A DNA stretch of 64,000 nt from a phage. Positions 5,058 through 47,795 of this stretch are shown in pieces. The notes below the pieces were generated by a model, which worked only from the letters and a program-made list of their open reading frames with translations, did not search any database and was not told the origin of the DNA. Location: sequence record PZ171035.1, one strand, 5' to 3'. The first letter of the stretch is position 1. Each line of letters begins with the position of its first letter. The position numbers were made by a program, and so were the translations under genes.

Positions 5058-5062
5058 GTAAT

Positions 5063-5084
5063 AGCTGCTCCGCAGCTTTTGGTT
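5063..5084 (+). terminator. intrinsic terminator
   Basis: AGCTGC-TCC-GCAGCT hairpin followed by TTTGGTT. Confidence 0.5.
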
Positions 5085-5110: not shown

Positions 5111-5929
5111 ATGTACTCATCTATTGAACATCAGAAGCAGCTTGAAGTCCTTTTTAACAAAAACCAATTACTGCCTCGCATGAGGAAGGAATTCGAGGAC
5201 TCCAAAGAAATTGACTTTAAGGCATTCGCTGCCTATTTAGAAATTGATTATAAGCTGCTCATTGATGCAATGGTGCAGATTGCCCTACATAAACGTGCTG
5301 ACATCCAGACTATGATTGGCTCTCTCATGAGTCACTCAGATGATGCTCAGTACATCGCTGACTGTCTGTATAAGATGGCAGAGAATGACTGCTTCAACTA
5401 TGACCCTACCATCGACAAGTTCGGTGTTATCTATGAGATTAGTGAAGATGTTCAGATGGAACTGGAAGCATTCCAGTATCCATTACCAATCGTCAGTAAA
5501 CCTAAGCCTGTCCTGACTAACCGGGACACTGGTTACTATGAGTCTAAAGGCTCAATCATCCTCAAGAAGAACCATCATGAGATGGACGTCTGCCTTGACC
5601 ACATTAACCGCATGAACAACCAACGTCTCTGTATTAACTGGGACGTTGCTAACTATGTAAAAGACTCTCGTCCTAACATGGATAAACCCAAAGAGGGTGA
5701 AACCCGTCAGGATTATGAGAAACGTGTTAAAGCCTTTGAGAAGTACAGTCGTACTGCTAAGGAAGTAATGGAGTTAGTAACCAAAGAGGGCAATAACTTC
5801 TCGCTAGCGCATAAGTATGACAAGAGGGGCAGAACCTATGCCTGTGGATACCACATTAACTATGCGGGGACTTCATATAACAAGGCAGTGATTGAATTTG
5901 CAGATAAAGAACTAGTAAACGAGGATTAG
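5111..5929 (+). CDS. RNA polymerase II small subunit (N4 gp15-like, N-terminal part of a split T7-like RNAP)
   Basis: 272 aa, immediately upstream of the catalytic subunit; size and order match the N4 heterodimeric RNAP II; RBS aggagaa. Confidence 0.6.
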   Translation: MYSSIEHQKQLEVLFNKNQLLPRMRKEFEDSKEIDFKAFAAYLEIDYKLLIDAMVQIALHKRADIQTMIGSLMSHSDDAQYIADCLYKMAENDCFNYDPTIDKFGVIYEISEDVQMELEAFQYPLPIVSKPKPVLTNRDTGYYESKGSIILKKNHHEMDVCLDHINRMNNQRLCINWDVANYVKDSRPNMDKPKEGETRQDYEKRVKAFEKYSRTAKEVMELVTKEGNNFSLAHKYDKRGRTYACGYHINYAGTSYNKAVIEFADKELVNED

Positions 5930-6513: not shown

Positions 6514-7731
6514 ATGCAGATTTTCACAGCTAAAGAATATTTAAAAATTGATATTGCCAATTCTTACGGGCTGGATAAGAAGACATGGGATGAACGTATT
6601 AGCTGGTTCGATGAGAACGAAGCTAACCTGCTTAATCTGGTAGATGAAGCAGAAGAATCCGCACTGTTCTATGCAGGTGTAAACGCATGGAAAGATATGA
6701 AAGCCGGTAAGCCTATCGGTTATGCCGTAGCTCTGGATGCTACATCATCAGGCTTACAGTTACTGGCTTGCCTGACTGGTGACCGTTCTGCTGCTGAACT
6801 GTGTAACGTAGTTAACTACATGGGCGAGAATGGTAAGCCATTACGTCGTGATGCTTATACAGTTATCTATCACAAGATGCTGGACATCCTTGGTGAAGCA
6901 TCACGTATTAAACGTAGTGACACTAAGCAAGCAGTTATGACTGCATTCTACGGTTCAGAAGCCAAACCTAAAGAAGTATTCGGTGAGGGTATCCGTCTCA
7001 AGACTTTTGAGAATGTAATGGAAACGGTTGCTAGTGGTCCTTGGGCATTGAACAAGTTCTTACTGCAATGTGGTAACCCGGATGCTAACCGTTACGTATG
7101 GGTACTGCCTGACAACTTCCATGCTGTCATTAAGGTCATGGTTCCAGAGGTACAGACTGTTAACTTCTTAGGAAAACCATTCGACATCACTCGTATGGTT
7201 CAGGGTACTGAAGAGAAGACTCGTATGCTCTCTGCTAATATCACTCACTCTATTGATGGGATGGTGGTACGTGAGATGCTGCGTCGTTGTAACTTCAACA
7301 TGAACCAGGTGAGCTATGTTAAGTCACTTTGTGAAGGAACCTGTGATTACATGGTAGGTACTAGTGAGAATTACGACATGGTTAGCCAACTGTGGCATAG
7401 CTATGAGAAATCAGGTTTCCTGTCTACCCGCATCTTTGATTATCTGGATTCCGACTCAGTTAAACTGGTTGATACAGATGTAGTGCTGGCTATGCTGAAC
7501 ACTCTGCCTAAGAAATCATTCCCTGTAATGACCGTACATGACTGCTTCCGTTGCCATCCTAACTATGGCAATGACCTGCGTCGTCAGTACAATCAGATTC
7601 TGTCTGACATTGCTAAGAGTGACCTACTGGGCTTCATTCTGTCTCAGGTACTGGGGCAAGAGTTCTCTGCTGGTAAGCTGGATGACAGCCTCTGGCAGGA
7701 CATTCTCGAAACAGACTATGCATTAAGTTAA
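6514..7731 (+). CDS. RNA polymerase II large/catalytic subunit (N4 gp16-like, T7-like single-subunit RNAP C-terminal part)
   Basis: 405 aa; T7 RNAP-like motifs ALDATSSGLQLLA (cf. DGSCSGIQH) and VHDCFRCHP (cf. HDSFG motif C). Confidence 0.8.
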   Translation: MQIFTAKEYLKIDIANSYGLDKKTWDERISWFDENEANLLNLVDEAEESALFYAGVNAWKDMKAGKPIGYAVALDATSSGLQLLACLTGDRSAAELCNVVNYMGENGKPLRRDAYTVIYHKMLDILGEASRIKRSDTKQAVMTAFYGSEAKPKEVFGEGIRLKTFENVMETVASGPWALNKFLLQCGNPDANRYVWVLPDNFHAVIKVMVPEVQTVNFLGKPFDITRMVQGTEEKTRMLSANITHSIDGMVVREMLRRCNFNMNQVSYVKSLCEGTCDYMVGTSENYDMVSQLWHSYEKSGFLSTRIFDYLDSDSVKLVDTDVVLAMLNTLPKKSFPVMTVHDCFRCHPNYGNDLRRQYNQILSDIAKSDLLGFILSQVLGQEFSAGKLDDSLWQDILETDYALS

Positions 7732-8929: not shown

Positions 8930-8960
8930 GACCTCCCCATCGAAGGGAGGTCTTTTTTTG
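8930..8960 (+). terminator. intrinsic terminator (GACCTCC-type family)
   Basis: GACCTCCC-CATCGAA-GGGAGGTC hairpin followed by TTTTTTTGGTTT. Confidence 0.65.
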
Positions 8961-8984
8961 GTTTAAACATCCTGGAGCCAGAAA

Positions 8985-16232: not shown

Positions 16233-16258
16233 GACCTCCTCCGGGAGGTCTTTTTTTG
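16233..16258 (+). terminator. intrinsic terminator (GACCTCC-type family)
   Basis: GACCTCC-TCCG-GGAGGTC hairpin followed by TTTTTTTGGTTT; near-identical to the element at 8930. Confidence 0.65.
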
Positions 16259-16286
16259 GTTTCAACTAACTCTTTTAGGAGGGTTT

Positions 16287-30666: not shown

Positions 30667-30722
30667 GCAAACAGGAGTCTTTCTTTGGTTTGAAGGACTC
30701 CTAAATTAAATGAGGAAAAATA

Positions 30723-33326: not shown

Positions 33327-34095
33327 TCTGGTAGGTGGCTCAGAAGCTGCTGCTATTTGTGGTAGTGTTCGTAATTCTGATGCTATTGCTTATCAGGATT
33401 CTGGACGTGTCGGCTCCATACATAGCATTTATCATCACTGTGCTTATACTTTGGAAACTCAGTGATAAAAACGGTGGTGACAAGCCGCCAGAGTAACAAC
33501 AACAACCGAACCAGTGGACTTTATTACTCCCCGAAGTCCACTGGTTCAATCTAAACTAAGCGGAAAAGTTAGCTTTTTCTTGGGTGTAGAACCTGTTGAA
33601 GGAAACAAAGAATTTCACATTGAATAGTTAATATCGTGAAGGGTTCTGTTAGAATCCTTTGAGATAGGAACTCCTATCATAACTATTCTTAACTTAATCA
33701 TTGCCGTATGGCACTGACGCTAGGGGTGGCCCCCCCATCCGTCAGGTAGACTATTTTAAGAATGGATTATCACAGCAAATGTAAAGCAACATTCGGGTTA
33801 ATCAATGGCCTCTCCCTATAGGGGCCATTTCTGAATCTTAGGCTATATCCCAAAGGTTAGTATCTTTGGGATAAGGCTTCAGATCCCTTATCAACTAACG
33901 CTCGTGTTGAGCATTTTAATCACATAAGCCCCTATATGGGCTGGGTTAAATGTCGGATAGCAAAGCTACCTACAGCATCGAATTGTTAGGTCTTACATGT
34001 AATATAGGGTATAAAGGGAGGACTCGTCCCCTCCCTCCTATTATGACATCCTATCAATGAGTACATTAAGCTAACGTGCGGAGGTTTACACTGTA

Positions 34096-34657
34096 GCCGG
34101 TGTAGGTGGAGAAGACGGCAGGGTAGCTACCTGTGCTTAGTGTACTCTTTGATAGTTTTCGTAAGCGATTATGCGGTTTTTTAGAAACGAACCAATAACA
34201 TAAATGCAAACGATGATGTTGTTCTGATGGCGGCGTAATAGCCTGTAAGTCAGCAAGGTCTTCCGACTCCTTGTAAGCAAATTCGGCGCAGTGGCCCGCT
34301 GTGATTAATAATGGGCACACAACAGGTAAGAGCATTTAGGCTACTGAGAAATCATCCGAGGCAATCAGACCTATCTTCTGTTAAGTGCTCTTTCCGTTGT
34401 GGTGAATGCGCAGGCTGATGCGCAGTGGGACGTGGCTGACTCACGAGGATGGCTCAAGCGAATAAGCAAGCTCGACGCCGCCGAATAAGCGCCTTATGCC
34501 GGAGATCAGCACCGGCCACCACAACAAGTCCAGACGATATCTGAGTGACTATAAAAACAGATGGAGCCAGGTGGAATCCCTGGCAACTAATTCCGGTGTA
34601 GGTACTAGTGTCGTGCACGGCATGAGCATTCTGGTTCGAGTCCAGACGCCGGAACCA
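34096..34657 (+). ncRNA. candidate tmRNA-like RNA (tag-like reading frame at 34206-34241; limits very tentative)
   Basis: GCA AAC GAT GAT GTT GTT CTG ATG GCG GCG TAA TAG = ANDDVVLMAA + two stops, AU-rich upstream, resembles tmRNA resume/tag regions; 3' T-arm-acceptor-ACCA at 34630-34657; no G3-U70 pair found. Confidence 0.3.
34592..34657 (+). tRNA. tRNA-like minihelix element A (acceptor stem + T-arm + A + CCA, truncated body)
   Basis: 5' TCCGGTG pairs with 3' CGCCGGA; T-arm TCTGG-TTCGAGT-CCAGA; encoded ACCA; only 66 nt, no canonical D/anticodon arms. Confidence 0.35.
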
Positions 34658-34659
34658 AT

Positions 34660-34783
34660 TACCAGTTGCACGAGATGGCTTGACATGTTCAAGTTTGGAC
34701 TAAGTGTGACACCGCTAGATTGGAGGGCTGCTGCGGTAAGCTATAGACTCCAACCGGAGGTTCGAATCCTTCACTGGTAACCA
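34660..34783 (+). ncRNA. tRNA-like element B (T-arm + acceptor + ACCA, 124-nt body)
   Basis: 5' TACCAGT pairs with 3' ACTGGTA; T-arm GGAGG-TTCGAAT-CCTTC; encoded ACCA; too long for a canonical tRNA. Confidence 0.3.
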
Positions 34784-35366
34784 ATTCAAAGTAGCACTCG
34801 TTTATACTTCCCGGTATTCAAAGACACATTCTTGTGTGAGTGTTACTCTGAATTGTAAGAATTATGGGGGTAAGTCGTAAATACGACAGCGTAAGTACCA
34901 GATGAAACCTCTGGACGCCCCTACCATATTTGAGATGTAACAGTTAAATCCGTACCCGGAAGTGCTATTCTAGATACGCTGCCAATGTGGAGACGGTAAG
35001 GCTGTACAGGACTCGGACTCCCACCTCAAACCAAAGTCGCCAGATACTTATGGCAAACGGGTAGTAACGAACTAGTCATTCGTCAAACGCCCACCCTATT
35101 ATGAGTCAGCAAGAACGCCTTCACTTAAACTTAAACAAAAAAGCTTAACGCAATAATTATGTAGGGGTATGTAAGGATTGCGAAGAAGGAGCCAGTTAAA
35201 GTCTGGCATGACTCACCTAATTGAGGCTGTACTTATGTTCTACAGTAGGTGCACAACACTGGGCTGCTACACCCAGAGGTACAGCCTCACCCTATTATGG
35301 GTAGCCTATACTAGTTATAGGGCAGATAATCTGTGGCAGTGTAAGGCTGCACTACCCTTTCATTAA

Positions 35367-35442
35367 TACCCGGTAGGCTTAGTGGTAAAGCCCCACTAGT
35401 AAACCAACTAGGACGCAGGTTCGAATCCTGTCCGGGTAGCCA
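35367..35442 (+). tRNA. tRNA-like gene C (76 nt; canonical acceptor, D and T arms; non-canonical anticodon loop)
   Basis: Acceptor TACCCGG/CCGGGTA, D-arm GGCT-TAGTGGTAA-AGCC, T-arm GCAGG-TTCGAAT-CCTGT, G + CCA; anticodon arm folds only as CTAGT/ACTAG with 6-nt loop or CTAG/CTAG with 8-nt loop. Confidence 0.5.
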
Positions 35443-35447
35443 TTTAT

Positions 35448-35532
35448 GCCCACTTAGCTCAGTGGTAGAGCGCAGGAAAGCTTCGAGAGAACAAGGTGTC
35501 TGTGGTCACTGGTTCAAATCCAGTAGTGGGTA
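35448..35532 (+). tRNA. tRNA-like gene D (85 nt; canonical acceptor, D and T arms; anticodon region not foldable by eye)
   Basis: Acceptor GCCCACT/AGTGGGT, D-arm GCTC-AGTGGTA-GAGC, T-arm ACTGG-TTCAAAT-CCAGT; 35-nt segment between D and T arms. Confidence 0.45.
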
Positions 35533-35848
35533 CTTATTTGCTGCAATATTCCCATAGGGAATGGTGTCGTATACGCCACCTAGTTTCTGGTGAAACTCCA
35601 GATGCAGCAATCCATTCAGCAGTAACATAGTCCTGATTGCATTGCACTCTAAAGACAACACTGGTAAGACAGTCCAGTGGCTGCTATTGTATTGATATTC
35701 CCCTCGACGGGAATTTCGCTAGTGAAGGTAACACTTAAAAATCCAAACCCACGTCTTACTGCTATCGGGCTATCAACCCACAGTCGCTTAACACACTAGT
35801 GGTAGTAGTTTGACGACCTAGCCTCGTTAGCTGCGTTAAAGCTACTAA

Positions 35849-35886
35849 GTCCCCTAGAGCCGCCCCTCTAGGGGACTTTTTTATTT
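35849..35886 (+). terminator. strong intrinsic terminator closing the RNA-gene region
   Basis: GTCCCCTAGAG-CCGCCC-CTCTAGGGGAC hairpin followed by TTTTTTATTT. Confidence 0.7.
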
Positions 35887-36053
35887 GAGTATTAATAACC
35901 GGATAATCAATATGATTGACCTAATCTCAACCCCGTATGCCTATGAGGTAACGGACAACCGAGGGCATAAGTACTTGGTATTTGTAGGTAGCGTAGCCTA
36001 TAACAACGCAGTCATGTTTAAGTACAAACTCAAACCACTCTATGAGGCTAATA

Positions 36054-37377: not shown

Positions 37378-40300
37378 TTAGTTAGTAAGATTGAGCCACG
37401 GGTTCAGGGTATGAGCACGTAAGCCTTGACCGAAACCGAAGGAGTAACCAAGATTGCCCTGTGCAGCAATACTAAAGATGTTGTCCTGAATAGGCAGGCC
37501 AACGTTACCAAACATGGTAGGGGTTGGGGCCAACATAGCCATAGCAGCATGAACTGGGTTATTACGAATCATGGACACTGCAACTTTTGCAGAACGAATC
37601 TTAAAGTTGTAGAACCACATCAGACCAACGCTTTCCATATACCCACGGAAACGACCAGGCAGACGGTCATAGTTAATGAACTCTTCCGTTACACGTCCCA
37701 GTGCTTCTTCGCGAGTCTTACCTTTACGCTGAGTTAGTTCATCATAGATGATTGCTTTAGCAATAAAGTCAGAGTACTCAACCGTCTTCTGGATACTCTG
37801 GAACAAAGCAGTATCCTTAGTGATAAGTGCATAACGACCTGCGTTACGTACAGACTTAGGCAGCTTATCGGCTAGCTTATCCATATATTCGTGAAGTTTA
37901 CCTTCAGTAATCAGAATGTCATCACGCCCAATACCAGCATCTGCAATTGAAGAGAACTCACCAGCTTCCAATAGAGGCCAGATACTCAAACGCTTATGGC
38001 TATCCGTAATGGACTGAATCTCAGCCTTAAGTTTACGAATCTGGTTCGGGTTAGTAGCTGCACGTAATTCTGCTTCTGCATCTACCTGACGCAGGCGAGA
38101 TTTCAGGTACTGGTTAATCTCAGCAGTCTTCTGTGGAATGCTCTTAGCAATGTTCTTAACCGGTACACCACGAGCAACCATCTGGTAAAGGTTAGCCAGG
38201 AAGTTAACAGCAGGTACAACTACTGACTTAACCACAATCAGAGTCTTAGCTTCTTTAACTAAGTTTTGAACCAGGTTCTCTCCACCCATTACATATTTAT
38301 AAGCACGGTTACCGAAGACACCCAACATAGCTTTCTTGAAGGTATCCAGTGTTTCTGGGGACCAACGAGAATTACCAGACCAGGCATCACCAACGGAAGC
38401 TGCACGATAACCTAAGGCATCATTAAGCATGTCACGACGTACCCACAACTCACCTGGACCAAACAGACTTTCTGCTTTCTGACGAGTTTCACTATTCATC
38501 AGCTTAAGTGCATCGGCAGTTACTGGGTCCAGTTTAGAACCAAGAAGGTTAACGTACTGGGACTTATTAGAAGCAGACATCTTAATGTCGTTCTCATACA
38601 TGCTATGCAGGTTCTCAATTAGCATATCGTTGAAACGCTGAGCCTTAGCCTCTTCTACCTGACGACCACGCCATACACCGATTGCACGAGCAAGATGGTT
38701 CTCACCTTCAATGTGCTTCAGCATGTTAGGGTCAATAGATTGCTCGTAAGCAACTACATTACCATTAGCATCATATACAGGCAGCAGAGGTTCATTACCA
38801 CGTTCACCACGAGCAAGTGCTTTAGTGATACGGTCTACAGAAGGCTTGTCAGTGATACGACCCGCTACCATGGTTCCCATCGTAAAGCCTGTACCAAGGT
38901 CTACACCACCAGCAGTATTTCGAACGTTCTGTAAGATACCCTGTGAGAATGGGGCCTGTGCCTGTACTGGTGCGAAGTAGTAGCTACGTGCTGGACCACG
39001 GTTAGCAGAGCTACCTTGATAAGTACCCAGACGTACATAGGACTTCTCAATCAAATCACCAAACTGGCTATCTTCAGCAACAATCAGATTAACACCCTGT
39101 TTAGTCTCACTAGGGATATGCCCTTTGTACTGGTTCAGGGTTGCACGCATATCAGATTTGGCTTTAGCCATTTCATCTTTACGCTGACCAACCAGGTAAG
39201 AGGTGGCAAAGTCCATCCCATCAACTTCTGTCTGAGCCAGTGAAGATAACATCTCACGGTCGGACTTGTTCATTGCTTCCAGTGCATACAGGGTAATCAG
39301 TTTATCCAGTTGAGCTACATCTACAGTAGAGCGTGCAGCCTGACGTTCACCCAGCATACGGGAGATTGCAGTAGCATTACGCAGCAGGTTTTTACCGACA
39401 GTACCATTAATCATGTACTGAGCCAGTTGCTTAGATTTACGGTTAATCAGAGGCCAGTTACGACCAGCTTGTTTCTGCAAATCTGCTTCCAGCTTATTCA
39501 CTTCACGGTCAACAATCTTCTGGTCAGTCAGTAAGTCACGGATTTCAGCCAGTGACATAGTGTCACGCAGGACAGCTAAATCTGTTTTACCCATACCAGT
39601 ATGCATTACTTTCCACTCATCATTAGTCAGCTTACGGCTGAACTTAGATGCGATAGTAGTAGGCAGATGTTCACGGAACTGCTGACGGTCTGCCTGCACC
39701 TGTGCACGTACTGCTTTAATCAAATCGTATACAGAAGCATTGCTCTTAGTACGACCGGTTAAGTCATTAACCAGGTCATGGAAAGGTTGCCATACCTTAC
39801 CCTGGTTCATTGCAGCCATAACACCTTCAGCTACGATTGCACCATTCTTCTCTGTAGCAATAGCAGCTACCAGTTGTGCAGCATGAGCAGCACCTTTAAC
39901 CAATGGATTATTGGTATTGGCTGCAACTTCACGAGCACCTTCCAAAGCACGGGTAGATAGTACATCAATAGAATCCACCAGATACTGGTTAGCACGGTCA
40001 ATAGCATTACCAGTAGGAGTAGCAACGGAATCATAGAAGGATTCTGCATTAAGACTGGTCTGCATAATCGTCTGAGCCAGTGCATCCATACCTTCCTGTA
40101 CGTTAGTAGCTTTAGTATCACCTGCTACACGAGCATTCAGACTAGCCATTGCAGCAGTACCAATGTTAGTCAGCATTGCATCAACGGTATTACCTGATTT
40201 CTTATCTGCTTTCATGACAGGAATGTCAGCCAGTACTTTACGTACTTCTTCACTTACCATTGCCAGACCAACAAAGGTAGGCAGTAAAGAAGATCGACCT

Positions 40301-43300
40301 TGTGCATCAAACTCAATGTTGTTAGCACCCATGATGGTATCGAACTTCTGCTGTGCATAATAACGATCAGCAGGGTTAGTACTATCTGGGTCAGCCATAA
40401 ATGCTTCGACGGTCAGATTCTTAGTAACATGCGTGTAGTATTCCTGTGCACGAGCCATAGCAGCAGGGTTAACAGCAGCCTCGGTAGCCAGTGCAGCAAC
40501 AATATTGGTAAAGAGACGCTGTTCCTGCATATTCATGGTGAAGCCATGAGCCTGAACATCACGAGTTACTTTAGTTGCATTTACTACTGCATCAGAGAAC
40601 TTACCTTTGCGAATTACTTGCTGTACTGGTTCTGAACCAATGTAGTTAGTAATTAGCTTATCAAAGGTTTTCCCTAGCTCTTCCAGACGAGTATTTTCAC
40701 CATACGCTTTGTTATGGAACAGAGTAGTATCTTTGGCTACAGCAGCAGTAGGAGCTTGCCCACGCATTACTACAGCAGAGTTAAACAGTAAGCCAGAGAA
40801 CATATCTTCTGCATTAGCAGGAGCTTTCTTACGTCCAAATACCAGACGTTTGATTGCTTCATATACAGCCTGAACCATAGTTTTAAGTGCAGTGGTTTTC
40901 TTCTGCTTACTAATCAGTTCTCGGTTGGTTAAACCCCAAGCCATGTACTCGTTCAGTGCAGCAGCTTTAGCCATTGCTGGTTCAATAAAGCCATTGGATA
41001 GGTGACCATTAATGGTATTCAGTGCATCAGCATATGCTTCTCGTACTGCCGGAGATTCATCCCTAACATCCAGAGCACGGAACTGATTCATCAGGTCTTC
41101 GATGTTCTGGACTGCTTCATTAGGAGTGCCTTCATAGTGAGCCAGTACAGATTCAAAAGTAGAAGCATGTACCAATTCATGAACCAGAGTCTCTAAGGAA
41201 GGGGTAACTAAGTAGATGGTTTTATCTTCAAAGTTAGTCCAGCCGTATGCATTACCAGCTTCAGCAGCTTCAATATCTTCCGGTGCTGGGCGAGTAATGT
41301 TCTTCTCAATAGCATAGGCATCCAATTGAGCAGGTGTACCGTAAACAACTTTATAGTCTTTAGCAGCAAGGGATTTCTGTATTTCTTTCAATACTTCTTG
41401 CTGTTCAGGAGACATCTCTTTAGCCAGTTTAGTAATGGCAGTGTTAGACAGCAGACGTACACCAGACTTCAGTACACGACCAACCTGTTCCATCGCCGGT
41501 ACTTCTTCCACTGGTTCTGCTTTAGTAGCACGTACTGCTTCACGACGCTTATTTAATTCAGCATCAAACAGTTCGTTCAGCTTAGCTACTTGCTGGTCTA
41601 CAGTAAGACCTTCCAGAGAGATTTTACCGTTGTTCACATAAGGAGCACCTACGGCAGCCATCTGGTCAACAGTGACTTGTACCTGGTCCATTACCTTGTG
41701 ACGAATATCTACACCCAGAGCAATGTTACGCAGGTTACGTTCAATCTGCTCAGCACCGACACGTAACAGGTCATCAGTAGCACCCTCACGTTGGTCATAC
41801 TCCAGAGCAGACTTAGCGATAGCCTGTTTGGTTTCATCAGACAGTTTACTGAAGTCTACGTTCTTCATGAACTTAGCGTAGGAGTCATAAACATTCTTGA
41901 TAGGGTTACCCTGCCAGGAAGTATATACAGCCTCATTAGCTTTGCGACTTGCATCAGTGATGTCATTGATACCAATGTTCATACCATCAAAGATTTTCAG
42001 GGTATTCTTCGGAGCACCTTTCATAGTAGAAAGTGTCTGCATCATCATGCCATCACCAGTACCGATGGTCATAAATGGAATACCTGCAACACCTGCCTGT
42101 GAAGGAGCATAAATGCTCATTGGCACACGCATACGGTCATCTAAGTTAGTAGCCAGTACTTGGTTAGCAACATCAGTATTCTCACTACCAGCAATGTAGA
42201 AAGTCTGTGAACCAGTCTCAATCATTGGAGCCAGTGAAGATAATGATTCCTGGATTTCATTCAGTTCTTTCTGCGTTAAGAAATCACCTTTCTTCCAGGT
42301 TGGGTCTTTTTCTTTTTCTGCCAGCTTAGCCTGTACTGCTTGCTGGAACATATCCTGCAATACCAGAGATTGAATCTGGGTAGCCTTCTGCAAGTTCTCG
42401 GTAGAGTGCATCAGACCTTCACCAACAGTATTACGGATACCAGTACGCATTGGTTCAACGAACAGGTGGAGCATGTTCTCTTGTAAGTTCTTCAGGGCAT
42501 TACCGGATACGGTAAATTTCTGGGGGTCTAACTTACCAGTCAGAGCACCATCTACTTGCTGAATAGACAACTCACCTTTACGCATAACTGGAACATTACC
42601 AGTCAGTGCTTCCATAGAAGTAAGGAAAGTATCCAACATAGCCTGAGCATCAGCTTCAGACGCAGCCTCCTTACCAAACATTGCCATAGCTGGGGAAATG
42701 CTAGGGTCAGCAGCTCGTGCTTGCAGAACGTCACTGAAGCGTTCGTAGATGGTATCAGTAATTGCACTGACCATCTTGCCAGCAATACCACGAGCACCAG
42801 AACCATAGATGGTAATGGTCAGTGGGTTTTTAGCAATACCACGTTTCAGGTCCAGAGTACCGTCTTCATTCAGGTTAAAGTCTTTAATGAACAAGTCCAT
42901 TAACTTCTGGAGATGATTCATCTGGCTCATAACTGGAACGTTGTTACGGTAAGTAGTACGTAACTCATTCAGTGCTTGTTGAAGACCATTGGTAGATGCT
43001 TCATACAAGTCAACATTATCGTCGATAGAACAATGTTCGTTCATCGTTTTACCAGCACGACCAAAGAACAAACCACCTTTGGCAGTGTTCTTAATCCAGT
43101 CTGGAGTGAACTTACCACCAGTCATTAATACCATTGCGTTGATTGGGCCGTTGGTTACACCATCAGCTTCAACGTACAGTGGAGTAGTAAAATTAGCACG
43201 GTCATCACTGTTCAGGTAACGGGCATATTCCATCAGAGCCATGAGAGCTACGAAGGATTTATCACTACCCAGAGAGGTCTTCAGGATGTCTACTGCATCT

Positions 43301-46300
43301 GTCGGTAAGTGACCAGACTTATCAAACTCAACCATCATATCAACAGCAGGTTTCAGTTTACCTTCCAGAGCTTTAGTTAACTCTTCAGACATAACTTCAC
43401 GGGACATTTTATGTACCTTGATGCCTAATGCCTGAGCCAGACCTAACTGGAAGTCAGAGAACGCTTGGCTGTTTTCATTACTCAAGTCGATAGTAGAGAA
43501 GGTTGGTAGGATTGCTTCACGAACCAGCTTACTGGATTGTGGGTTGTTCTTACCAAGCATCTGCATACGACCTACACGGGTCATGTTATAACCGTAGTGG
43601 ATAGGTGTATCCAGACCATTCTCTTGTTCTCGTATCTGATTAATTACACCGAACAGAGAATCATATGCCATAGACACGGACAGGTTTTTACCTTCCAAAG
43701 ATTTAGCAGTGTTCGCGTTCAGTAATTCTGGATTAAGAGTACCAGCACCCATCAGTTCCAGAATGTTGTCACGCCCCAATGCTTCATAGAAGTTAACCAT
43801 TGGCATATGTACACGGAACTCGGTAGCCTGTTCAGCTTTCAGTGCAGCTTTCTGTTCAGGGGTATTCTTAACAGCAGGGTTACGCAACTGAGTCTGAGCC
43901 ACAGAAGGAATGTCATCACCAAAGTACATTTTCTCTTCTGGTTCTAAGAGGACAGCTTCCTCAATAGCAGTAGGGAATTTATTAATGGCATCATTGTCAT
44001 CCAACTTCTCAATGGTATACAGACCAACAGTCTTATTGGAGTCTGGGTCAATCTCAGACACATCCAACATAGACTCTTTAACTTCACCCATCTCAATGAG
44101 AGAAGACAGAATCTCTGTAGCCATTGCCATTGGGATACCTTTGGTATAACCCAGCGGTGCATTAGGATTACGATTCAAACCCCAGTAGGATTCAATCTTC
44201 TGAGCCAGTGAGTTAGTAGCTTCAACCAGGGTCTGGGCATTCTCGAACTCAGCCAGAATACCTTCTGGTAACAGAGATGCTTCTACGCCTGTAATAGCAG
44301 CTACGTCTTTCATATCTTTAATGGCAGCATTCTGTGTAGTAGTCAGTCGCCATTGCAAACCAGCAAGCACAGCAGTCTCTAACAACTGGTCGTTGAACTT
44401 AAAGGTATCCCCATCTTGTTCAACTATATTCAGCAGTTTGCCACCTACCCAACGGTTAGCTTCAGTACCTTCTGCAAAACGTTTACCAACGTTCTTATTA
44501 GCAAGGAACTTAGCCAGACGTTCAGACAAAGTAGTCTTCAGAGTTTCACCAAAGTCCATTAAGTCCTGATAACGCTTAATCACATCACTAGTGAGAGCGT
44601 TATTTTCTTTTTGAGTGAATGCCTCAAAGCGAGCAGCAGAAGACAGTGCTTGCTTAATATCAGTCAAAGGAGATTCTGAACCAATGGTACGGGACTTAGG
44701 TTCTTCCGGTAAGGTAAATGCTTTCAGGAACTGGTTCGGTGTCTTTTCATTGTTATAGACAGGGAACACTGTTTCCATTTCTGTTTTGGTTTCAGCTACT
44801 TCCTGGATGGTATCCTCATTCTTGAGAATAGCATCTACTGTTTCAGGCTTAGTAGTAGAGACTTCTTCTGTTTTTGGACTAGTCTCCTTAGTAGGAGCAG
44901 TCTTATTTTCTACCACAGGTTTAGCTTTAGGCTGTACAGTAGTAGTGTCCTCTTGCACTGGTGCAGGAGATTCATCAACCTGATTCACTGGTTCATTAGT
45001 CTGTTGAGACTGAGTGGCATCAAGACCACCTTGACGGAACTCTTTAACTACCTGGGCAGCAGGCTTGTTCAGACGTGAATCCAACGAGGTAACTTTCACA
45101 TGAGAAACATTAAGCTCCGGGTAAGCCGTAGCAAGTGCATTAGCAATATCAGCTACGGTTTTGGCTTCCAGTCCTACTTGCTGGGCAAACTTAACAGACT
45201 TGGTATCGTAAGGATTGACACCGAGGCCAGTACGACTACGTACCCATTCACGGGAAGGCGAGAGAGCCTGATAATGAACAGACTTATTCTTATCCGCATT
45301 CCCCGAAATCAGATGCTCATTCAACGCTCCGACCTTATTCTGCATGTGCTGGGCGAACTTCATAAAGTCGCTCAGATAAGCGGAGGCCAAATCGAAGTTA
45401 CCAGAGTTATACGCAGAACGAATGCGTTTCGCATGTTGCAACGCAGAGTACTGTCCTTCATTAGAACGAGACTCGTCGGTTTTAATCTGTTTACTAACAA
45501 TGTCTTGAGGACGTAAGCCTAGTTCTTCTGCTTTAGCGTCGAACTCACGTGCACCCTGTAACAAGGCAGCAGCAGATTGCAGGGCAGCACGTTGACGATT
45601 ACCCAATGTAATCTTACCTTCACTTGCATGTTTCAGAACCATGTTCACTGAATCCGCATCCAGTACTTCTGGAGATACATCAGCAGCCATAGCAATATTG
45701 TTTGCTTGGGCTTGGTTAGCTTCTTCAGTAGCTTTCAGCTTACCTGCTTCAGCCTGTTCCTGAATCATGGAATGGATAGCACGGAATGCACGAAGTACTT
45801 TCGGGGTATTCTGTACGTTAGCCATCAGGCCGGAGAATTGGTCTACGATTGCAGCAGCAGGAGAACCCTGTTCAAGATTAGCCAGAGCACCTGGGTCACG
45901 GTTAATGAAGCTATCCATAGACATGATGTTGTCATACATCTGGATTGCAGCTTCCATTTGAACGTTAGGGTCTTCGGCAGTATTAACCAGGTCAGCCATC
46001 TTCTGAATAGCTTCAACACGGTTAGTGGAACCAGAAACAGCTTCACGGATTGCCGGGTTAGCTTGTTCCAATTCTACCGGGTCAAACTTCATTGCCTGAG
46101 TTAAGTCAGCAGCATACTGGGTAGCAGCAGCTTTCTCTTCTGGAGTGATGTCCATTGCATCCACTGCTTCTTGTACAGTTGCCTGTGCTTGTTCTGCCTG
46201 AGCAGCAGCTTCCTGTGCAGCAGCATTAACCGTAGCATCAGCTACAGGGGATGCTTGTTCATTACGCTTAGCAACTTCTTCACCACGTTGAATCAGGATG

Positions 46301-47730
46301 TTAGTAAGAGGGGATGCAGCTTTTGCTAATGTTTTGCCAACCAGAGAAGCACCAGCCATGGTAGTACGAAGAGCAGGGCCAGCAGAAGCACCAACTGCTT
46401 TAACAGTTGTACCAGGAGCTTGAGCAACCCCAGCACTACCGAATCCATAAAGTGCACCCAGACCTGCTTGCTCACCAACCCCTTTGAGGGTGTCACGGGA
46501 TGCATCAACGTTTTCTTTGATTGCAGTATTCTGTGCGAACTGACCAAAGCCGGATTGAATACCTTCTTCGACTGTTTCACGTAGCATATTAGAACCAGCA
46601 CCTGCCAGTGAACCTACCTTAAGTGGGTTAAGTTCAAAGCGAGATACCAGTGGACCGGTAGCAGCAGCAACTGGAGCAGTTAAGCCAGCAGCAATGATAC
46701 CTGTTTCAGATGCAGTCTGACGACGTGCTTCATCAGGAGATAAACCATCAGCAATATGTTGTTGGTAAACAGGAGACTTACTTGCCAATTCTTGATGGGA
46801 CATCTTCATGATTTCAGAAGCAGTCTGTTGGTATGCACCACCAGCTTCCATACCACCGATTGCAATAGCAGGTGCAGCAACACGACCGGCAGACAATGCA
46901 ACCTGTGCAGGACGTGAACCTAACCCAGCAGCTAAGGTAATACCCTTAACAGCTTTATCACCACCTACCATTACTTTACCAAGTGCAGATACACCACGAA
47001 TAAGAGGACCACCAGTAAAGAGAGAACCAACACCTTCACTCAGTCCGTCAGAGGCAGCCATACCATTATCAAGTGTGTTAGCAACAGAATCGAAAGCGTC
47101 ACGACCAATACGAGACAGGGAGGCAACCAAATCGCTGTCCCCATTTTTGATATCTTGTTCATAAAGTTTCTGGTTCTTTTGAGCAGAAATCTGGTTCTGA
47201 TTCTGAACAACTTTACGGGTAGCATTCAGTGCATCAGACTGTAGATTGTGTACACCTTCATTCAACCAATCCATCCCGGAAGCAATGGATGCCCCGGCAT
47301 TATCATTGACCAGACCTGTGCCAAGAGCAGCAATGCCCCCAAGGGTATTAGCAACACCAAGACCAACACCAGAAAGAGTATCGCCAAATGCTTCTGCGTT
47401 AGTACGCTGTTTAGATAAGTCCTGACGTACAACATCAGCAGCATTAGCTCGGCTATTAATAATCTGTAGACCTTGTTCATTACCGTACTTATTAATGATT
47501 TCTAAAGGGGAGGCTTGAGTGAAATCTGCCTGAAGTGAACCTGGTTCGAATGCACCGATTCCAAGATTACCTACTCGTCCGGTCTGGAGATTGTAAGCAT
47601 TCTCTGGGGTTAATTGGAAAGGGCTTTGCCCTTGTGCAGCTTGCTTCTGAGAGGTTGCAGTAGAGACATCGACTTGCTTAGCATTAGTGATGCTGTCTGC
47701 GAAACCTGCCAGACGGTCAAATGTTGACAT
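37378..47730 (-). CDS. virion-encapsidated giant RNA polymerase (vRNAP, N4 gp50-like)
   Basis: Single uninterrupted 3450-aa ORF; only N4-like phages are known to encode a virion RNAP of this size; ORF track start at 47748 is TTG, first ATG at 47730 has AGGAAA RBS. Confidence 0.85.
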   Translation of the reverse strand: MSTFDRLAGFADSITNAKQVDVSTATSQKQAAQGQSPFQLTPENAYNLQTGRVGNLGIGAFEPGSLQADFTQASPLEIINKYGNEQGLQIINSRANAADVVRQDLSKQRTNAEAFGDTLSGVGLGVANTLGGIAALGTGLVNDNAGASIASGMDWLNEGVHNLQSDALNATRKVVQNQNQISAQKNQKLYEQDIKNGDSDLVASLSRIGRDAFDSVANTLDNGMAASDGLSEGVGSLFTGGPLIRGVSALGKVMVGGDKAVKGITLAAGLGSRPAQVALSAGRVAAPAIAIGGMEAGGAYQQTASEIMKMSHQELASKSPVYQQHIADGLSPDEARRQTASETGIIAAGLTAPVAAATGPLVSRFELNPLKVGSLAGAGSNMLRETVEEGIQSGFGQFAQNTAIKENVDASRDTLKGVGEQAGLGALYGFGSAGVAQAPGTTVKAVGASAGPALRTTMAGASLVGKTLAKAASPLTNILIQRGEEVAKRNEQASPVADATVNAAAQEAAAQAEQAQATVQEAVDAMDITPEEKAAATQYAADLTQAMKFDPVELEQANPAIREAVSGSTNRVEAIQKMADLVNTAEDPNVQMEAAIQMYDNIMSMDSFINRDPGALANLEQGSPAAAIVDQFSGLMANVQNTPKVLRAFRAIHSMIQEQAEAGKLKATEEANQAQANNIAMAADVSPEVLDADSVNMVLKHASEGKITLGNRQRAALQSAAALLQGAREFDAKAEELGLRPQDIVSKQIKTDESRSNEGQYSALQHAKRIRSAYNSGNFDLASAYLSDFMKFAQHMQNKVGALNEHLISGNADKNKSVHYQALSPSREWVRSRTGLGVNPYDTKSVKFAQQVGLEAKTVADIANALATAYPELNVSHVKVTSLDSRLNKPAAQVVKEFRQGGLDATQSQQTNEPVNQVDESPAPVQEDTTTVQPKAKPVVENKTAPTKETSPKTEEVSTTKPETVDAILKNEDTIQEVAETKTEMETVFPVYNNEKTPNQFLKAFTLPEEPKSRTIGSESPLTDIKQALSSAARFEAFTQKENNALTSDVIKRYQDLMDFGETLKTTLSERLAKFLANKNVGKRFAEGTEANRWVGGKLLNIVEQDGDTFKFNDQLLETAVLAGLQWRLTTTQNAAIKDMKDVAAITGVEASLLPEGILAEFENAQTLVEATNSLAQKIESYWGLNRNPNAPLGYTKGIPMAMATEILSSLIEMGEVKESMLDVSEIDPDSNKTVGLYTIEKLDDNDAINKFPTAIEEAVLLEPEEKMYFGDDIPSVAQTQLRNPAVKNTPEQKAALKAEQATEFRVHMPMVNFYEALGRDNILELMGAGTLNPELLNANTAKSLEGKNLSVSMAYDSLFGVINQIREQENGLDTPIHYGYNMTRVGRMQMLGKNNPQSSKLVREAILPTFSTIDLSNENSQAFSDFQLGLAQALGIKVHKMSREVMSEELTKALEGKLKPAVDMMVEFDKSGHLPTDAVDILKTSLGSDKSFVALMALMEYARYLNSDDRANFTTPLYVEADGVTNGPINAMVLMTGGKFTPDWIKNTAKGGLFFGRAGKTMNEHCSIDDNVDLYEASTNGLQQALNELRTTYRNNVPVMSQMNHLQKLMDLFIKDFNLNEDGTLDLKRGIAKNPLTITIYGSGARGIAGKMVSAITDTIYERFSDVLQARAADPSISPAMAMFGKEAASEADAQAMLDTFLTSMEALTGNVPVMRKGELSIQQVDGALTGKLDPQKFTVSGNALKNLQENMLHLFVEPMRTGIRNTVGEGLMHSTENLQKATQIQSLVLQDMFQQAVQAKLAEKEKDPTWKKGDFLTQKELNEIQESLSSLAPMIETGSQTFYIAGSENTDVANQVLATNLDDRMRVPMSIYAPSQAGVAGIPFMTIGTGDGMMMQTLSTMKGAPKNTLKIFDGMNIGINDITDASRKANEAVYTSWQGNPIKNVYDSYAKFMKNVDFSKLSDETKQAIAKSALEYDQREGATDDLLRVGAEQIERNLRNIALGVDIRHKVMDQVQVTVDQMAAVGAPYVNNGKISLEGLTVDQQVAKLNELFDAELNKRREAVRATKAEPVEEVPAMEQVGRVLKSGVRLLSNTAITKLAKEMSPEQQEVLKEIQKSLAAKDYKVVYGTPAQLDAYAIEKNITRPAPEDIEAAEAGNAYGWTNFEDKTIYLVTPSLETLVHELVHASTFESVLAHYEGTPNEAVQNIEDLMNQFRALDVRDESPAVREAYADALNTINGHLSNGFIEPAMAKAAALNEYMAWGLTNRELISKQKKTTALKTMVQAVYEAIKRLVFGRKKAPANAEDMFSGLLFNSAVVMRGQAPTAAVAKDTTLFHNKAYGENTRLEELGKTFDKLITNYIGSEPVQQVIRKGKFSDAVVNATKVTRDVQAHGFTMNMQEQRLFTNIVAALATEAAVNPAAMARAQEYYTHVTKNLTVEAFMADPDSTNPADRYYAQQKFDTIMGANNIEFDAQGRSSLLPTFVGLAMVSEEVRKVLADIPVMKADKKSGNTVDAMLTNIGTAAMASLNARVAGDTKATNVQEGMDALAQTIMQTSLNAESFYDSVATPTGNAIDRANQYLVDSIDVLSTRALEGAREVAANTNNPLVKGAAHAAQLVAAIATEKNGAIVAEGVMAAMNQGKVWQPFHDLVNDLTGRTKSNASVYDLIKAVRAQVQADRQQFREHLPTTIASKFSRKLTNDEWKVMHTGMGKTDLAVLRDTMSLAEIRDLLTDQKIVDREVNKLEADLQKQAGRNWPLINRKSKQLAQYMINGTVGKNLLRNATAISRMLGERQAARSTVDVAQLDKLITLYALEAMNKSDREMLSSLAQTEVDGMDFATSYLVGQRKDEMAKAKSDMRATLNQYKGHIPSETKQGVNLIVAEDSQFGDLIEKSYVRLGTYQGSSANRGPARSYYFAPVQAQAPFSQGILQNVRNTAGGVDLGTGFTMGTMVAGRITDKPSVDRITKALARGERGNEPLLPVYDANGNVVAYEQSIDPNMLKHIEGENHLARAIGVWRGRQVEEAKAQRFNDMLIENLHSMYENDIKMSASNKSQYVNLLGSKLDPVTADALKLMNSETRQKAESLFGPGELWVRRDMLNDALGYRAASVGDAWSGNSRWSPETLDTFKKAMLGVFGNRAYKYVMGGENLVQNLVKEAKTLIVVKSVVVPAVNFLANLYQMVARGVPVKNIAKSIPQKTAEINQYLKSRLRQVDAEAELRAATNPNQIRKLKAEIQSITDSHKRLSIWPLLEAGEFSSIADAGIGRDDILITEGKLHEYMDKLADKLPKSVRNAGRYALITKDTALFQSIQKTVEYSDFIAKAIIYDELTQRKGKTREEALGRVTEEFINYDRLPGRFRGYMESVGLMWFYNFKIRSAKVAVSMIRNNPVHAAMAMLAPTPTMFGNVGLPIQDNIFSIAAQGNLGYSFGFGQGLRAHTLNPWLNLTN

Positions 47731-47795
47731 AGCATGTTTCCTGTTCAAACTTATATCGTATATAGGTAACTTACTCTACAGTAAGCCAGTTAAAG

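Follow-up and report, generated by a model that had tools for sequence, protein, structure and literature searches.

A C-rich TATTATG motif as the probable joint of a tandem tRNA-like RNA array in a Gamaleyavirus

The 64-kb stretch of phage DNA analysed here (record PZ171035.1, hereafter the window) covers the larger part of one Gamaleyavirus genome; the phage is a G7C/N4-like member of the Schitoviridae, and the best DNA matches of the window are to Escherichia phages KKP 3715, nithesis, Bp4, EC1-UPM and others like them. It contains an RNA island of approximately 2.4 kb (about 33500–35900), lacking any credible open reading frame (ORF), in which a C-rich TATTATG motif occurs three times. This motif is probably the junction between neighbouring genes in a head-to-tail array of transfer RNAs (tRNAs) and tRNA-like RNAs, acting as a cutting site and cassette boundary and not as a promoter. 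The observations behind this reading are the anatomy of the joints, the covariation of the helices that adjoin them, their conservation across phages and the position of homology breakpoints.

The island is an array of structured RNAs, all encoded on the + strand, and is situated between homologues of N4 gp47 and gp48. At the same place N4 has a gap of 1.5 kb with four tRNA genes inside, and six tRNAs are annotated in a comparable gap of Klebsiella phage KP8. In GenBank records the island is left blank, filled with 'hypothetical protein' micro-ORFs, or assigned one or two odd tRNAs. Islands from 13 Gamaleyavirus loci, N4, two KP8-type Klebsiella phages, U1G and 18 IMG/VR contigs (30+ in total) were compared. 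Loci are given L numbers where they need to be told apart: L014 is N4, L015 is KP8, L038 is Klebsiella phage e270.1, and L006 and L010 are phages PD205 and St11Ph5.

Occurrence of the motif and anatomy of the probable joints

The three strings reported in the initial annotation, CCTCCTATTATGA (34034–34046), CCACCCTATTATGA (35091–35104) and CTCACCCTATTATGG (35286–35300), are present at those positions and are referred to as sites 1, 2 and 3. A genome-wide search, which that annotation had proposed, confines the core CCTATTATG to the island at a frequency above chance. With both strands of the window scanned there are exactly three matches, all on the + strand and all in the island, against a mean of 0.64 in shuffled sequences; 2 of 100 shuffles reach three matches anywhere, and three copies within 1.3 kb on one strand were seen in 0 of 300. 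The complete genome of KKP 3715 (71,272 bp) gives a like result, with two copies, both in the island and on the island strand. When 1–2 mismatches were allowed, matches elsewhere in the window were below chance (16 found, 30 expected). Sites 2 and 3 have 15 nt in common with one mismatch (CACCCTATTATGRGT), and the motif is kept at the same joints in KP8-type phages of Klebsiella as well as in 13 related Gamaleyavirus loci.

In each joint, the 3' strand of a closing helix leads into N-CC-(A/C/U), where N is the discriminator base; an A/U spacer (often UAUUAU) comes next, and then base 1 of the following RNA, usually a G. The C-rich half of the motif corresponds to the 3' strand of the upstream closing helix plus ACC (UCC at site 1), and the spacer consists of 2–8 nt of A and U, most commonly (C)UAUUAU. 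At sites 2 and 3 the G is base 1 of a closing helix, which stops just before ACC. The joints and the units that they separate are as follows.

34004–34041, + strand: GC-rich hairpin (AUAGG / GGGAGGA...UCCCCUCCC / CCUAU) that ends in site 1 (folding)
34034–34046, + strand: site 1, CCUCC-UAUUAU-G-A, in which G34045 opens the next RNA (string match and alignment)
34592–34659, + strand: tRNA-like RNA with an 8-bp closing stem, T arm UCUGG-UUCGAGU-CCAGA and encoded ACCA (folding)
34660–34785, + strand: long tRNA-like RNA, UACCAGU...ACUGGUA-ACCA (folding; a KP8 homologue exists)
35091–35104, + strand: site 2, ...CGCCC-ACC-CUAUUAU, then GAGUCA; G35103 is base 1 of unit b
35103–35217, + strand: unit b, tRNA-like non-coding RNA (ncRNA) of ~115 nt (fold z = -3.5)
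35215–35223, + strand: degenerate fourth junction, ...UGACUC-ACC-UAAUU, then GAGGCU
35223–35291, + strand: unit c, hairpin RNA with 12-bp closing stem GAGGCUGUACUU / AGGUACAGCCUC (folding and repeat search)
35286–35300, + strand: site 3, ...GCCUC-ACC-CUAUUAU, then GGGUAG; G35299 is base 1 of unit d
35299–35357, + strand: unit d, small cloverleaf-like RNA GGGUAG...CUACCC (folding)
35367–35442, + strand: tRNA-like gene with an abnormal anticodon loop and encoded GCCA (ARAGORN tRNA-???; Rfam tRNA, 39.3 bits)
35443–35448, + strand: junction CCA-UUUAU-G between two adjacent tRNA genes
35448–35532, + strand: tRNA gene lacking an encoded CCA, its anticodon region enlarged (Rfam tRNA, 53.9 bits)
35538–35614, + strand: tRNA-shaped RNA UUGCUGCA...UGCAGCAA-UCCA, preceded by the spacer CUUAU (cloverleaf fold, z = -4.3)

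The hairpin at 34004–34041, whose 3' strand forms the C-rich part of site 1, varies in its stem among relatives yet is retained (GGGAGG/CCTCCC, GGAGGG/CCCTCC or GGGAGA/TCCTCCC). The tRNA-like RNA at 34592–34659 is kept in N4 and KP8 and is separated from the next unit by an AU spacer, the long RNA at 34660–34785 beginning 2 nt past the preceding ACCA. Unit b has a 6-bp acceptor-type stem (GAGUCA/UGACUC) and a T-like arm (GCCAG-UUAAAGU-CUGGC); it also carries a long arm internally and ends in a 3' ACC. In KP8-type phages unit d is also preceded by ACC-UAUUAU, though its left neighbour differs. The tRNA-like gene at 35367–35442, of which 35367–35439 is covered by the Rfam tRNA match, has the spacer UUUCAUUAA in front of it; the junction that follows reads CCA-UAUUAU-G or CCA-UAAUAA-G in relatives, and in L012 the homologue of the next tRNA carries UCUAUUAU directly before its first G.

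Both of these tRNA genes are aberrant in the window. The anticodon loop of the gene at 35367–35442 has 6–8 nt, for which the ARAGORN output is 'tRNA-???, anticodon (ac)'. The gene at 35448–35532 has about 13 extra nt in its anticodon region and is missed by ARAGORN; relatives have a normal-length tRNA-Ile(AAU) at this second position.

A pattern of T-arm plus acceptor 3' strand is found in five copies in the island, and 10 of the 13 unit types in the window end in N-CC by our own count. Our scan for closed helices followed by NCC listed the expected units. The spacers are mostly unpaired by prediction, with probabilities of 0.55–0.94 compared with a regional mean of 0.40; the values for sites 1, 2 and 3 are 0.31, 0.73 and 0.81, respectively. 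An Rfam search of the island and the 13 related loci gave only tRNAs and sub-threshold transfer-messenger RNA (tmRNA) matches, with nothing over the motif or units b, c and d.

Comparison of 52 distinct junction contexts reveals T at position -1 in 38 and A in 14, and A at -2 in 35, T in 16 and C in one. The spacer before unit b is CTATTAT in seven loci and CAATTAT in six, with (A)ACAAT next to two other left neighbours; the spacer after it is TAATT, TATTAT, TATTAAT, TATTT, CATTAT or CAATAT, according to the right neighbour. Leaders of the unit b family conform to NCC-(C/U/A)(U/C)AUUAU-G across six different left contexts. It is the design of the joint that is invariant, and not the exact 8-mer. 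Joints of this type are also in contact with tRNAs. In L012 and L013, CTATTAT-G abuts base 1 of a tRNA; at the position of the fourth junction L013 has ACC-UAUUAU-G ahead of a tRNA; and in L002, L005 and L007 UAUUAU occupies a gap of 6–7 nt between two tRNAs, directly past the encoded CCA. The canonical N4 and KP8 tRNA joints are GCCA-AAUUU-G, ACCA-AAUU-G, ACCA-CUAU-C and GCCA-UAU-A.

Covariation across genera sets the start of the helix at the G of the motif and its end just before ACC. Stems of the unit b family are GAGUCA/UGACUC in Gamaleyavirus and GAACCA/UGGUUC in N4 and KP8-type phages, and across genera there are compensatory changes in two of the six acceptor-type pairs and in three of the five pairs of the adjacent arm with a 7-nt loop; the internal arm adds three more compensatory pairs within Gamaleyavirus. 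Arm 1 of unit d covaries likewise (CCUAUA/UAUAGG, CUCGUA/UACGAG in L002 and CCCGUA/UAUGGG in KP8).

Unit b is itself a member of an ncRNA family of ~100–130 nt, common to N4, KP8-type and G7C-type phages (35103–35217 in the window, 33336–33433 in N4 and 2373–2502 in the KP8 locus). Members usually have a 3' ACC, and the variable long arm bears UAGGGGUAUGU. The family corresponds to no Rfam family and no annotation.

The joints coincide with points at which phages differ. Homology breakpoints between phages lie at 34044–46, 35031–34, 35097–101, 35216–25, 35291, 35355–62, 35444, 35529–38 and 35608–24. At site 1 they are found at 34044/34046 in L001, L006 and L010, and G34045 marks the end of a conserved upstream block and the beginning of a variable downstream RNA with a tmRNA-like tag frame (the tag RNA, described below). 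Homology to IME11, phi G17 and AN24P2 starts at 35097–35101, in site 2; a breakpoint is present at 35216–35225, the fourth junction, in at least 12 loci; and at site 3 the KP8 match starts at 35291. PD205 and St11Ph5 carry a 72-nt tRNA-Ala(CGC)-like cassette (L006:2150–2221 and L010:2041–2112), which sits precisely at the boundary of CCTATTAT with the site 1 G. This tRNA-Ala represents a clean case of one RNA cassette gained at a joint. As each cassette bears the same short joint, the joints are probably also the points at which phages have gained, dropped or exchanged RNA cassettes.

A second short repeat, AGGCTGTAC, had also been reported from the island. Its two copies are present, at coordinates 7–9 nt away from those first given (34999–35007 and 35224–35232), and there are further copies at 35279–35287, as the reverse complement, and at 44929. 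The copies at 35224 and 35279 are the two arms of one 12-bp stem, which closes unit c, a 66-nt hairpin RNA with an inner T-like hairpin and a 3' ACC found only in the window, KKP 3715 and E20. The remaining island copy is listed here.

34999–35007, + strand: first copy of AGGCTGTAC, inside a separate RNA (the same string occurs in the homologous N4 element)

This copy is probably unrelated to the others; the sharing of a 9-mer with the RNA that holds it is, by estimate, not clearly above chance and needs no special explanation.

Proposed processing of the array and alternative readings

Three further elements of the island are listed here.

33628–33655, + strand: sigma-70-like promoter with an extended -10 (TTAATA-16-TGTTAGAAT; consensus scan)
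33662–34003: hairpin-rich leader of ~340 nt between the promoter-like block and site 1
35847–35885, + strand: intrinsic terminator, a 13-bp GC-rich stem followed by TTTTTTATTT (terminator scan)

The promoter-like block at 33628–33655 is a candidate start of a polycistronic island transcript, and the block TAGTTAATATCGTGAAGGGTTCTGT(T/C)AGAAT is kept in all 15 aligned loci, irrespective of the upstream sequence. The terminator at 35847–35885 is the sole strong intrinsic terminator of the island and sits at its end; N4 and KP8 have a terminator at the matching position and none within their islands, so that three genera agree. The island may be transcribed as one long RNA ending at this terminator. 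Because there is a single terminator at the end and a conserved promoter-like block at the start, one transcript cut at the joints is the simplest model. The leader is kept in all Gamaleyavirus islands; it contains the palindromes CCCTATAGGG and CCCTATATGGG, and several records annotate micro-ORFs in it.

All three sites have units on either side, on the same strand, with no terminator between them, and the upstream ends before sites 1, 2 and 3 are UCC, ACC and ACC, each followed by an A/U-rich trailer. An acceptor-type helix with a T-arm-like hairpin lies downstream of site 2 (unit b), of site 3 (unit d) and of the joints before the L012 and L013 tRNAs, but not of site 1. For E. coli RNase P, U(-1) and an A/U leader free of structure are favourable, and the enzyme pairs with the substrate's 3' RCC; RNase E cleaves A/U-rich spacers just past CCA in polycistronic tRNA precursors; and RNase T stalls at 3' CC. 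Host RNase P could cut between the spacer and the G where the downstream unit offers an acceptor stem on a T-arm-like hairpin and a 3' NCC; sites 2 and 3, as well as the true tRNAs, would be cut in this way. The A/U trailer would then be trimmed back to CC by RNase E and/or 3' exonucleases, and the CCA-adding enzyme could extend ACC to ACCA. We infer these enzymes from what is generally known of tRNA maturation in E. coli.

The initial annotation had offered two readings of the motif, an RNA processing or recognition site or a promoter for one of the phage RNA polymerases. The former is supported by the anatomy of a joint between consecutive tRNA-like RNAs, at which cleavage would be expected. 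The latter, in which each motif is a short promoter for an N4-type RNA polymerase II (RNAPII), or site 1 a LUZ7-style hairpin promoter for RNAPII, with transcripts starting at the G as leaderless RNAs, is quite improbable. N4 RNAPII is said to require only an AT-rich element from -7 to +2 (PMC4496689), a size that CTATTAT-G-R matches. The middle promoters of LUZ7 are GC-rich hairpins that precede a G start by about 15 bp (PMC9163698), and the GC-rich hairpin at site 1 ends about 10 nt before its G. The three early promoters of the virion RNA polymerase (vRNAP) in the window also start at TTAT-GG or TTTT-GG, the core is kept ahead of five different RNA types, and CTCACCCTATTAT-GGG loosely resembles the T3/T7 promoter from -10 to +3. 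What tells against promoters is that neither of two genomes has the motif in its early, middle or late gene regions, so that none of the three polymerases can use it as a general promoter. In addition, no hairpin with a 5–7 bp stem and 3-nt loop lies 4 nt upstream of the G at any site, and transcripts would begin with G, whereas a preference for T has been reported for N4 RNAPII (PMC9163698). When measured against literature descriptions of RNAPII promoters (AT-rich -7 to +2, T start, middle units in the left half), the sites are AT-rich but have a G start, with no copies in 1–33,000 or elsewhere in KKP 3715. Orthologous sites read CAATTAT, ACAAT, TAATT, TATTT or TATTAAT, and the same spacer occurs in gaps of 5–9 nt past a tRNA CCA with no terminator between. 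The tag RNA of KP8 has no such element, and in L006 and L010 the element stays with the upstream hairpin.

The vRNAP itself is encoded by an ORF of 3456 aa on the minus strand (37378–47748). Its early promoters, with a 5–6 bp stem and a TCC loop, are at about 28–50, 722–745 and 5062–5082 (CATGC-TCC-GCATG-TTAT-GG near 30, GACGC-TCC-GCGTC-TTAT-GG near 730 and AGCTGC-TCC-GCAGC-TTTT-GG near 5065), the third just upstream of the RNAPII subunit genes at 5111–5929 and 6514–7731. In the middle-gene region, TTTGGTTT(A/C/G)A(A/C) is found directly past terminator hairpins at 8945–8970, 16240–16265 and 30675–30700; the TTTGGTTT string is a candidate terminator-promoter module, possibly the true RNAPII promoter class. 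A promoter of the type used by T7-like single-subunit RNA polymerases (17–23 bp, -17 to +6) was rejected for the motif, conservation at the sites reaching only to about -12, where it belongs to the upstream RNA, and variants occurring at -5, -8 and -9.

It is very unlikely that host sigma-70 promoters (N4 late-type, SSB-activated) drive the individual RNAs with TATTAT as their -10 hexamer. The hexamer matches TATAAT at five of six positions, with A2 and T6 kept, and site 2 has a weak -35 (TAGTCA, 18-bp spacer, 9/12 matches), but sites 1 and 3 lack both a -35 and a TG extension, promoter-like matches in the island are at shuffle expectation (5 vs 4.6), and a start about 7 nt downstream would remove the 5' strand of the closing helices of unit b, unit d and the L012 and L013 tRNAs. 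A coding role, in which the ATG of the motif starts tiny ORFs or the motif lies within a small coding gene (33950–34060, 36 aa), is scarcely credible. There is an ATG in each site, several GenBank records annotate ORFs of 30–45 aa and the 36-aa ORF spans site 1; the ORFs from the three ATGs, however, have only 5, 15 and 5 codons, the upstream sequence is C-rich with no Shine–Dalgarno sequence, and the ATG is not retained at variant junctions or in L006, L008 and L010, which have TATTATA. The small ORF across site 1 was likewise rejected, as phage variants differ in the reading frame that passes through the motif (PIM vs YYD).

Alternatively, the motif may have no function of its own and be a relic or microhomology, a joint copied with the cassette flanks in which only A/U-richness is needed. 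This is unlikely, and it is compatible with the joint reading to the extent of being no true alternative. It would agree with the finding that all three sites and the degenerate fourth are homology breakpoints, with the insertion of tRNA-Ala exactly at site 1 in two phages, with the drift of the spacer sequence at orthologous sites, and with the presence in these phages, immediately upstream of the island, of genes annotated for Sak4-like annealing and RuvC-like resolvase proteins. The presence of A or T at -1 and -2 in nearly all 52 contexts, however, and the retention of AUUAU-G across genera with unrelated left neighbours, argue for selection on the joint.

Several points weigh against the motif being a processing joint. 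Co-transcription, cleavage, the nucleases, trimming and CCA completion are all deduced. The number of closed units followed by NCC in the island is not clearly above the minus-strand or shuffle background. The (Y)UAUUAU-G core is more uniform than a generic spacer requires, and it precedes at least five unrelated RNA types with differing left neighbours; this uniformity is a hint of a reader specific for the sequence, or of a common origin of the joints. At site 1, the RNA that follows has no recognizable acceptor-type stem, its first 2–6 nt being variable and apparently unpaired, and CCUAU is predicted to pair with AUAGG at 34004–34008 (unpaired probability 0.31).

The tag RNA at site 1

The RNA bounded by site 1 deserves more attention than the motif itself.

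34045–34241, + strand: 5' part of the RNA bounded by site 1 (fold z = -4.0)
34045–34300: tag RNA, with a 21-bp hairpin at 34051–34155 and then a tag frame at 34206–34238 (stops to 34241)

The tag frame encodes ANDDVVLMAA followed by TAA TAG. It has no start codon, there is an in-frame stop eight codons upstream, and AUAAAU stands directly before it, a context like that of a resume codon. As in a tmRNA-type tag, an internal frame without a start codon leads to hydrophobic residues plus AA and then to stops. The length of 10 codons plus stop is kept in 16 loci with synonymous or conservative changes; the last Ala codons switch synonymously (GCG/GCA/GCC/GCT), and ANDDVILMAA, ANEEAYLMVA and ANDDVVLMVA are found as variants. 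The tag RNA is present in Gamaleyavirus and KP8-type phages (L015:1481–1745 and 15 other loci) and absent from N4.

A tRNA-like domain with G3:U70 was not found when the 5' hairpin of the tag RNA, its ends and the neighbouring tRNA-like units were inspected; the neighbouring units carry C3-G70. ARAGORN reports no tmRNA at the tag RNA, and the Rfam tmRNA_permuted and beta_tmRNA matches are sub-threshold (31 bits, with gathering at 47), the tag part alone being aligned. The 22-nt tag context is present in 18 viral contigs of about 70 kb and in 0 of 185,579 bacterial and archaeal genomes. In a 2014 census, mycobacteriophages and Bacillus phage G are the sole phages listed with ssrA (PMC4131195).

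In KP8 the tag RNA starts immediately past a tRNA-like ...GCCA, with no CTATTATG. This suggests that the 5' end of the tag RNA can come from processing alone, through maturation of its neighbour. In L006 and L010, CCTATTAT remains with the upstream hairpin and the displaced tag RNA has CCTACT in front of it instead.

Related systems and implications

Polycistronic tRNA operons of E. coli and the tRNA cluster of phage T4 likewise contain tandem stable RNAs on one strand with few A/U-rich bases between them, encoded-CCA or CCA-less 3' ends and a single downstream terminator, and the T4 cluster, with its stable 'species 1 and 2' RNAs, also has tRNA-like non-tRNAs among real tRNAs. Maturation of these transcripts involves RNase P, RNase E, RNase BN/exonucleases and the CCA-adding enzyme. 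The island differs in that most of its units are not decodable tRNAs but top-half mimics, mini-cloverleaves and a tag RNA, and in the unusual uniformity of its joint, (C)UAUUAU-G past ACC. By itself, the motif is an ordinary kind of signal, a joint of the tRNA-operon type.

The C4 antisense RNA precursor of phages P1 and P7, 4.5S RNA and tmRNA precursors are non-tRNA substrates of RNase P. The likeness to C4 lies in a phage RNA that is not a tRNA, with acceptor/T-arm mimicry and a 3' CCA-like tail; in the island, the 5' end made by RNase P is a prediction and many such units stand in series, unlike in P1 and P7. The N4 vRNAP early and RNAPII middle promoters, known from the same phage family, have a similar TTAT-G string and a similar -7 to +2 size (PMC4496689; PMC9163698), whereas the joint has no hairpin at the required distance, does not stand before early or middle genes and has a G instead of a T start. 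A literature search on Gamaleyavirus/G7C tRNAs or ncRNAs and on phage tmRNA gave no description of this island's RNAs or joints.

In T4-type phages, promoter-early stem-loop (PeSL) elements flank genes in hyperplastic regions and mediate modular shuffling. There too, a short repeated non-coding signal at cassette boundaries forms the recombination breakpoints; PeSLs consist of a promoter and terminator-like stem-loops beside protein genes, whereas the joint of the island flanks RNA genes and is not promoter-like. Speculatively, and with low confidence, the (N)CC-UAUUAU-G joint might be a portable cassette boundary, combining a maturation signal for the RNA behind it with microhomology for swapping RNA genes in modular integron-like or PeSL-like exchange, possibly with a phage-specific reader beyond host RNase P and RNase E. 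The RNA genes so exchanged may include the tmRNA-like tag RNA without a tRNA-like domain and the conserved acceptor/T-arm mimic.

Another structured RNA of the island, at 34310–34590, has the long-range helices GUUGUGGUG/CACCACAAC and AAGAGCAU/GUGCUCUU followed by a conserved 60-mer, AGTCCAGACGATATCTGAG...GGAATCCCTGGCA, which is also present in unrelated Klebsiella and Salmonella phages of 40–60 kb. In Klebsiella phage e270.1 (L038:1500–1735) the helix block and the 60-mer block are in reverse order, beside a tRNA-Ser. The arrangement suggests that the RNA at 34310–34590 and its e270.1 counterpart are a circularly permuted ncRNA. A search of 34310–34590 gave no Rfam match.

If the motif is the joint proposed here, the joints would delimit at least a dozen small RNAs in the 2.4-kb island and give exact predicted 5' and 3' ends for them, including the acceptor/T-arm mimic and the tag RNA. 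They would also explain why this region is a cassette-like mosaic among therapeutic N4-like coliphages.

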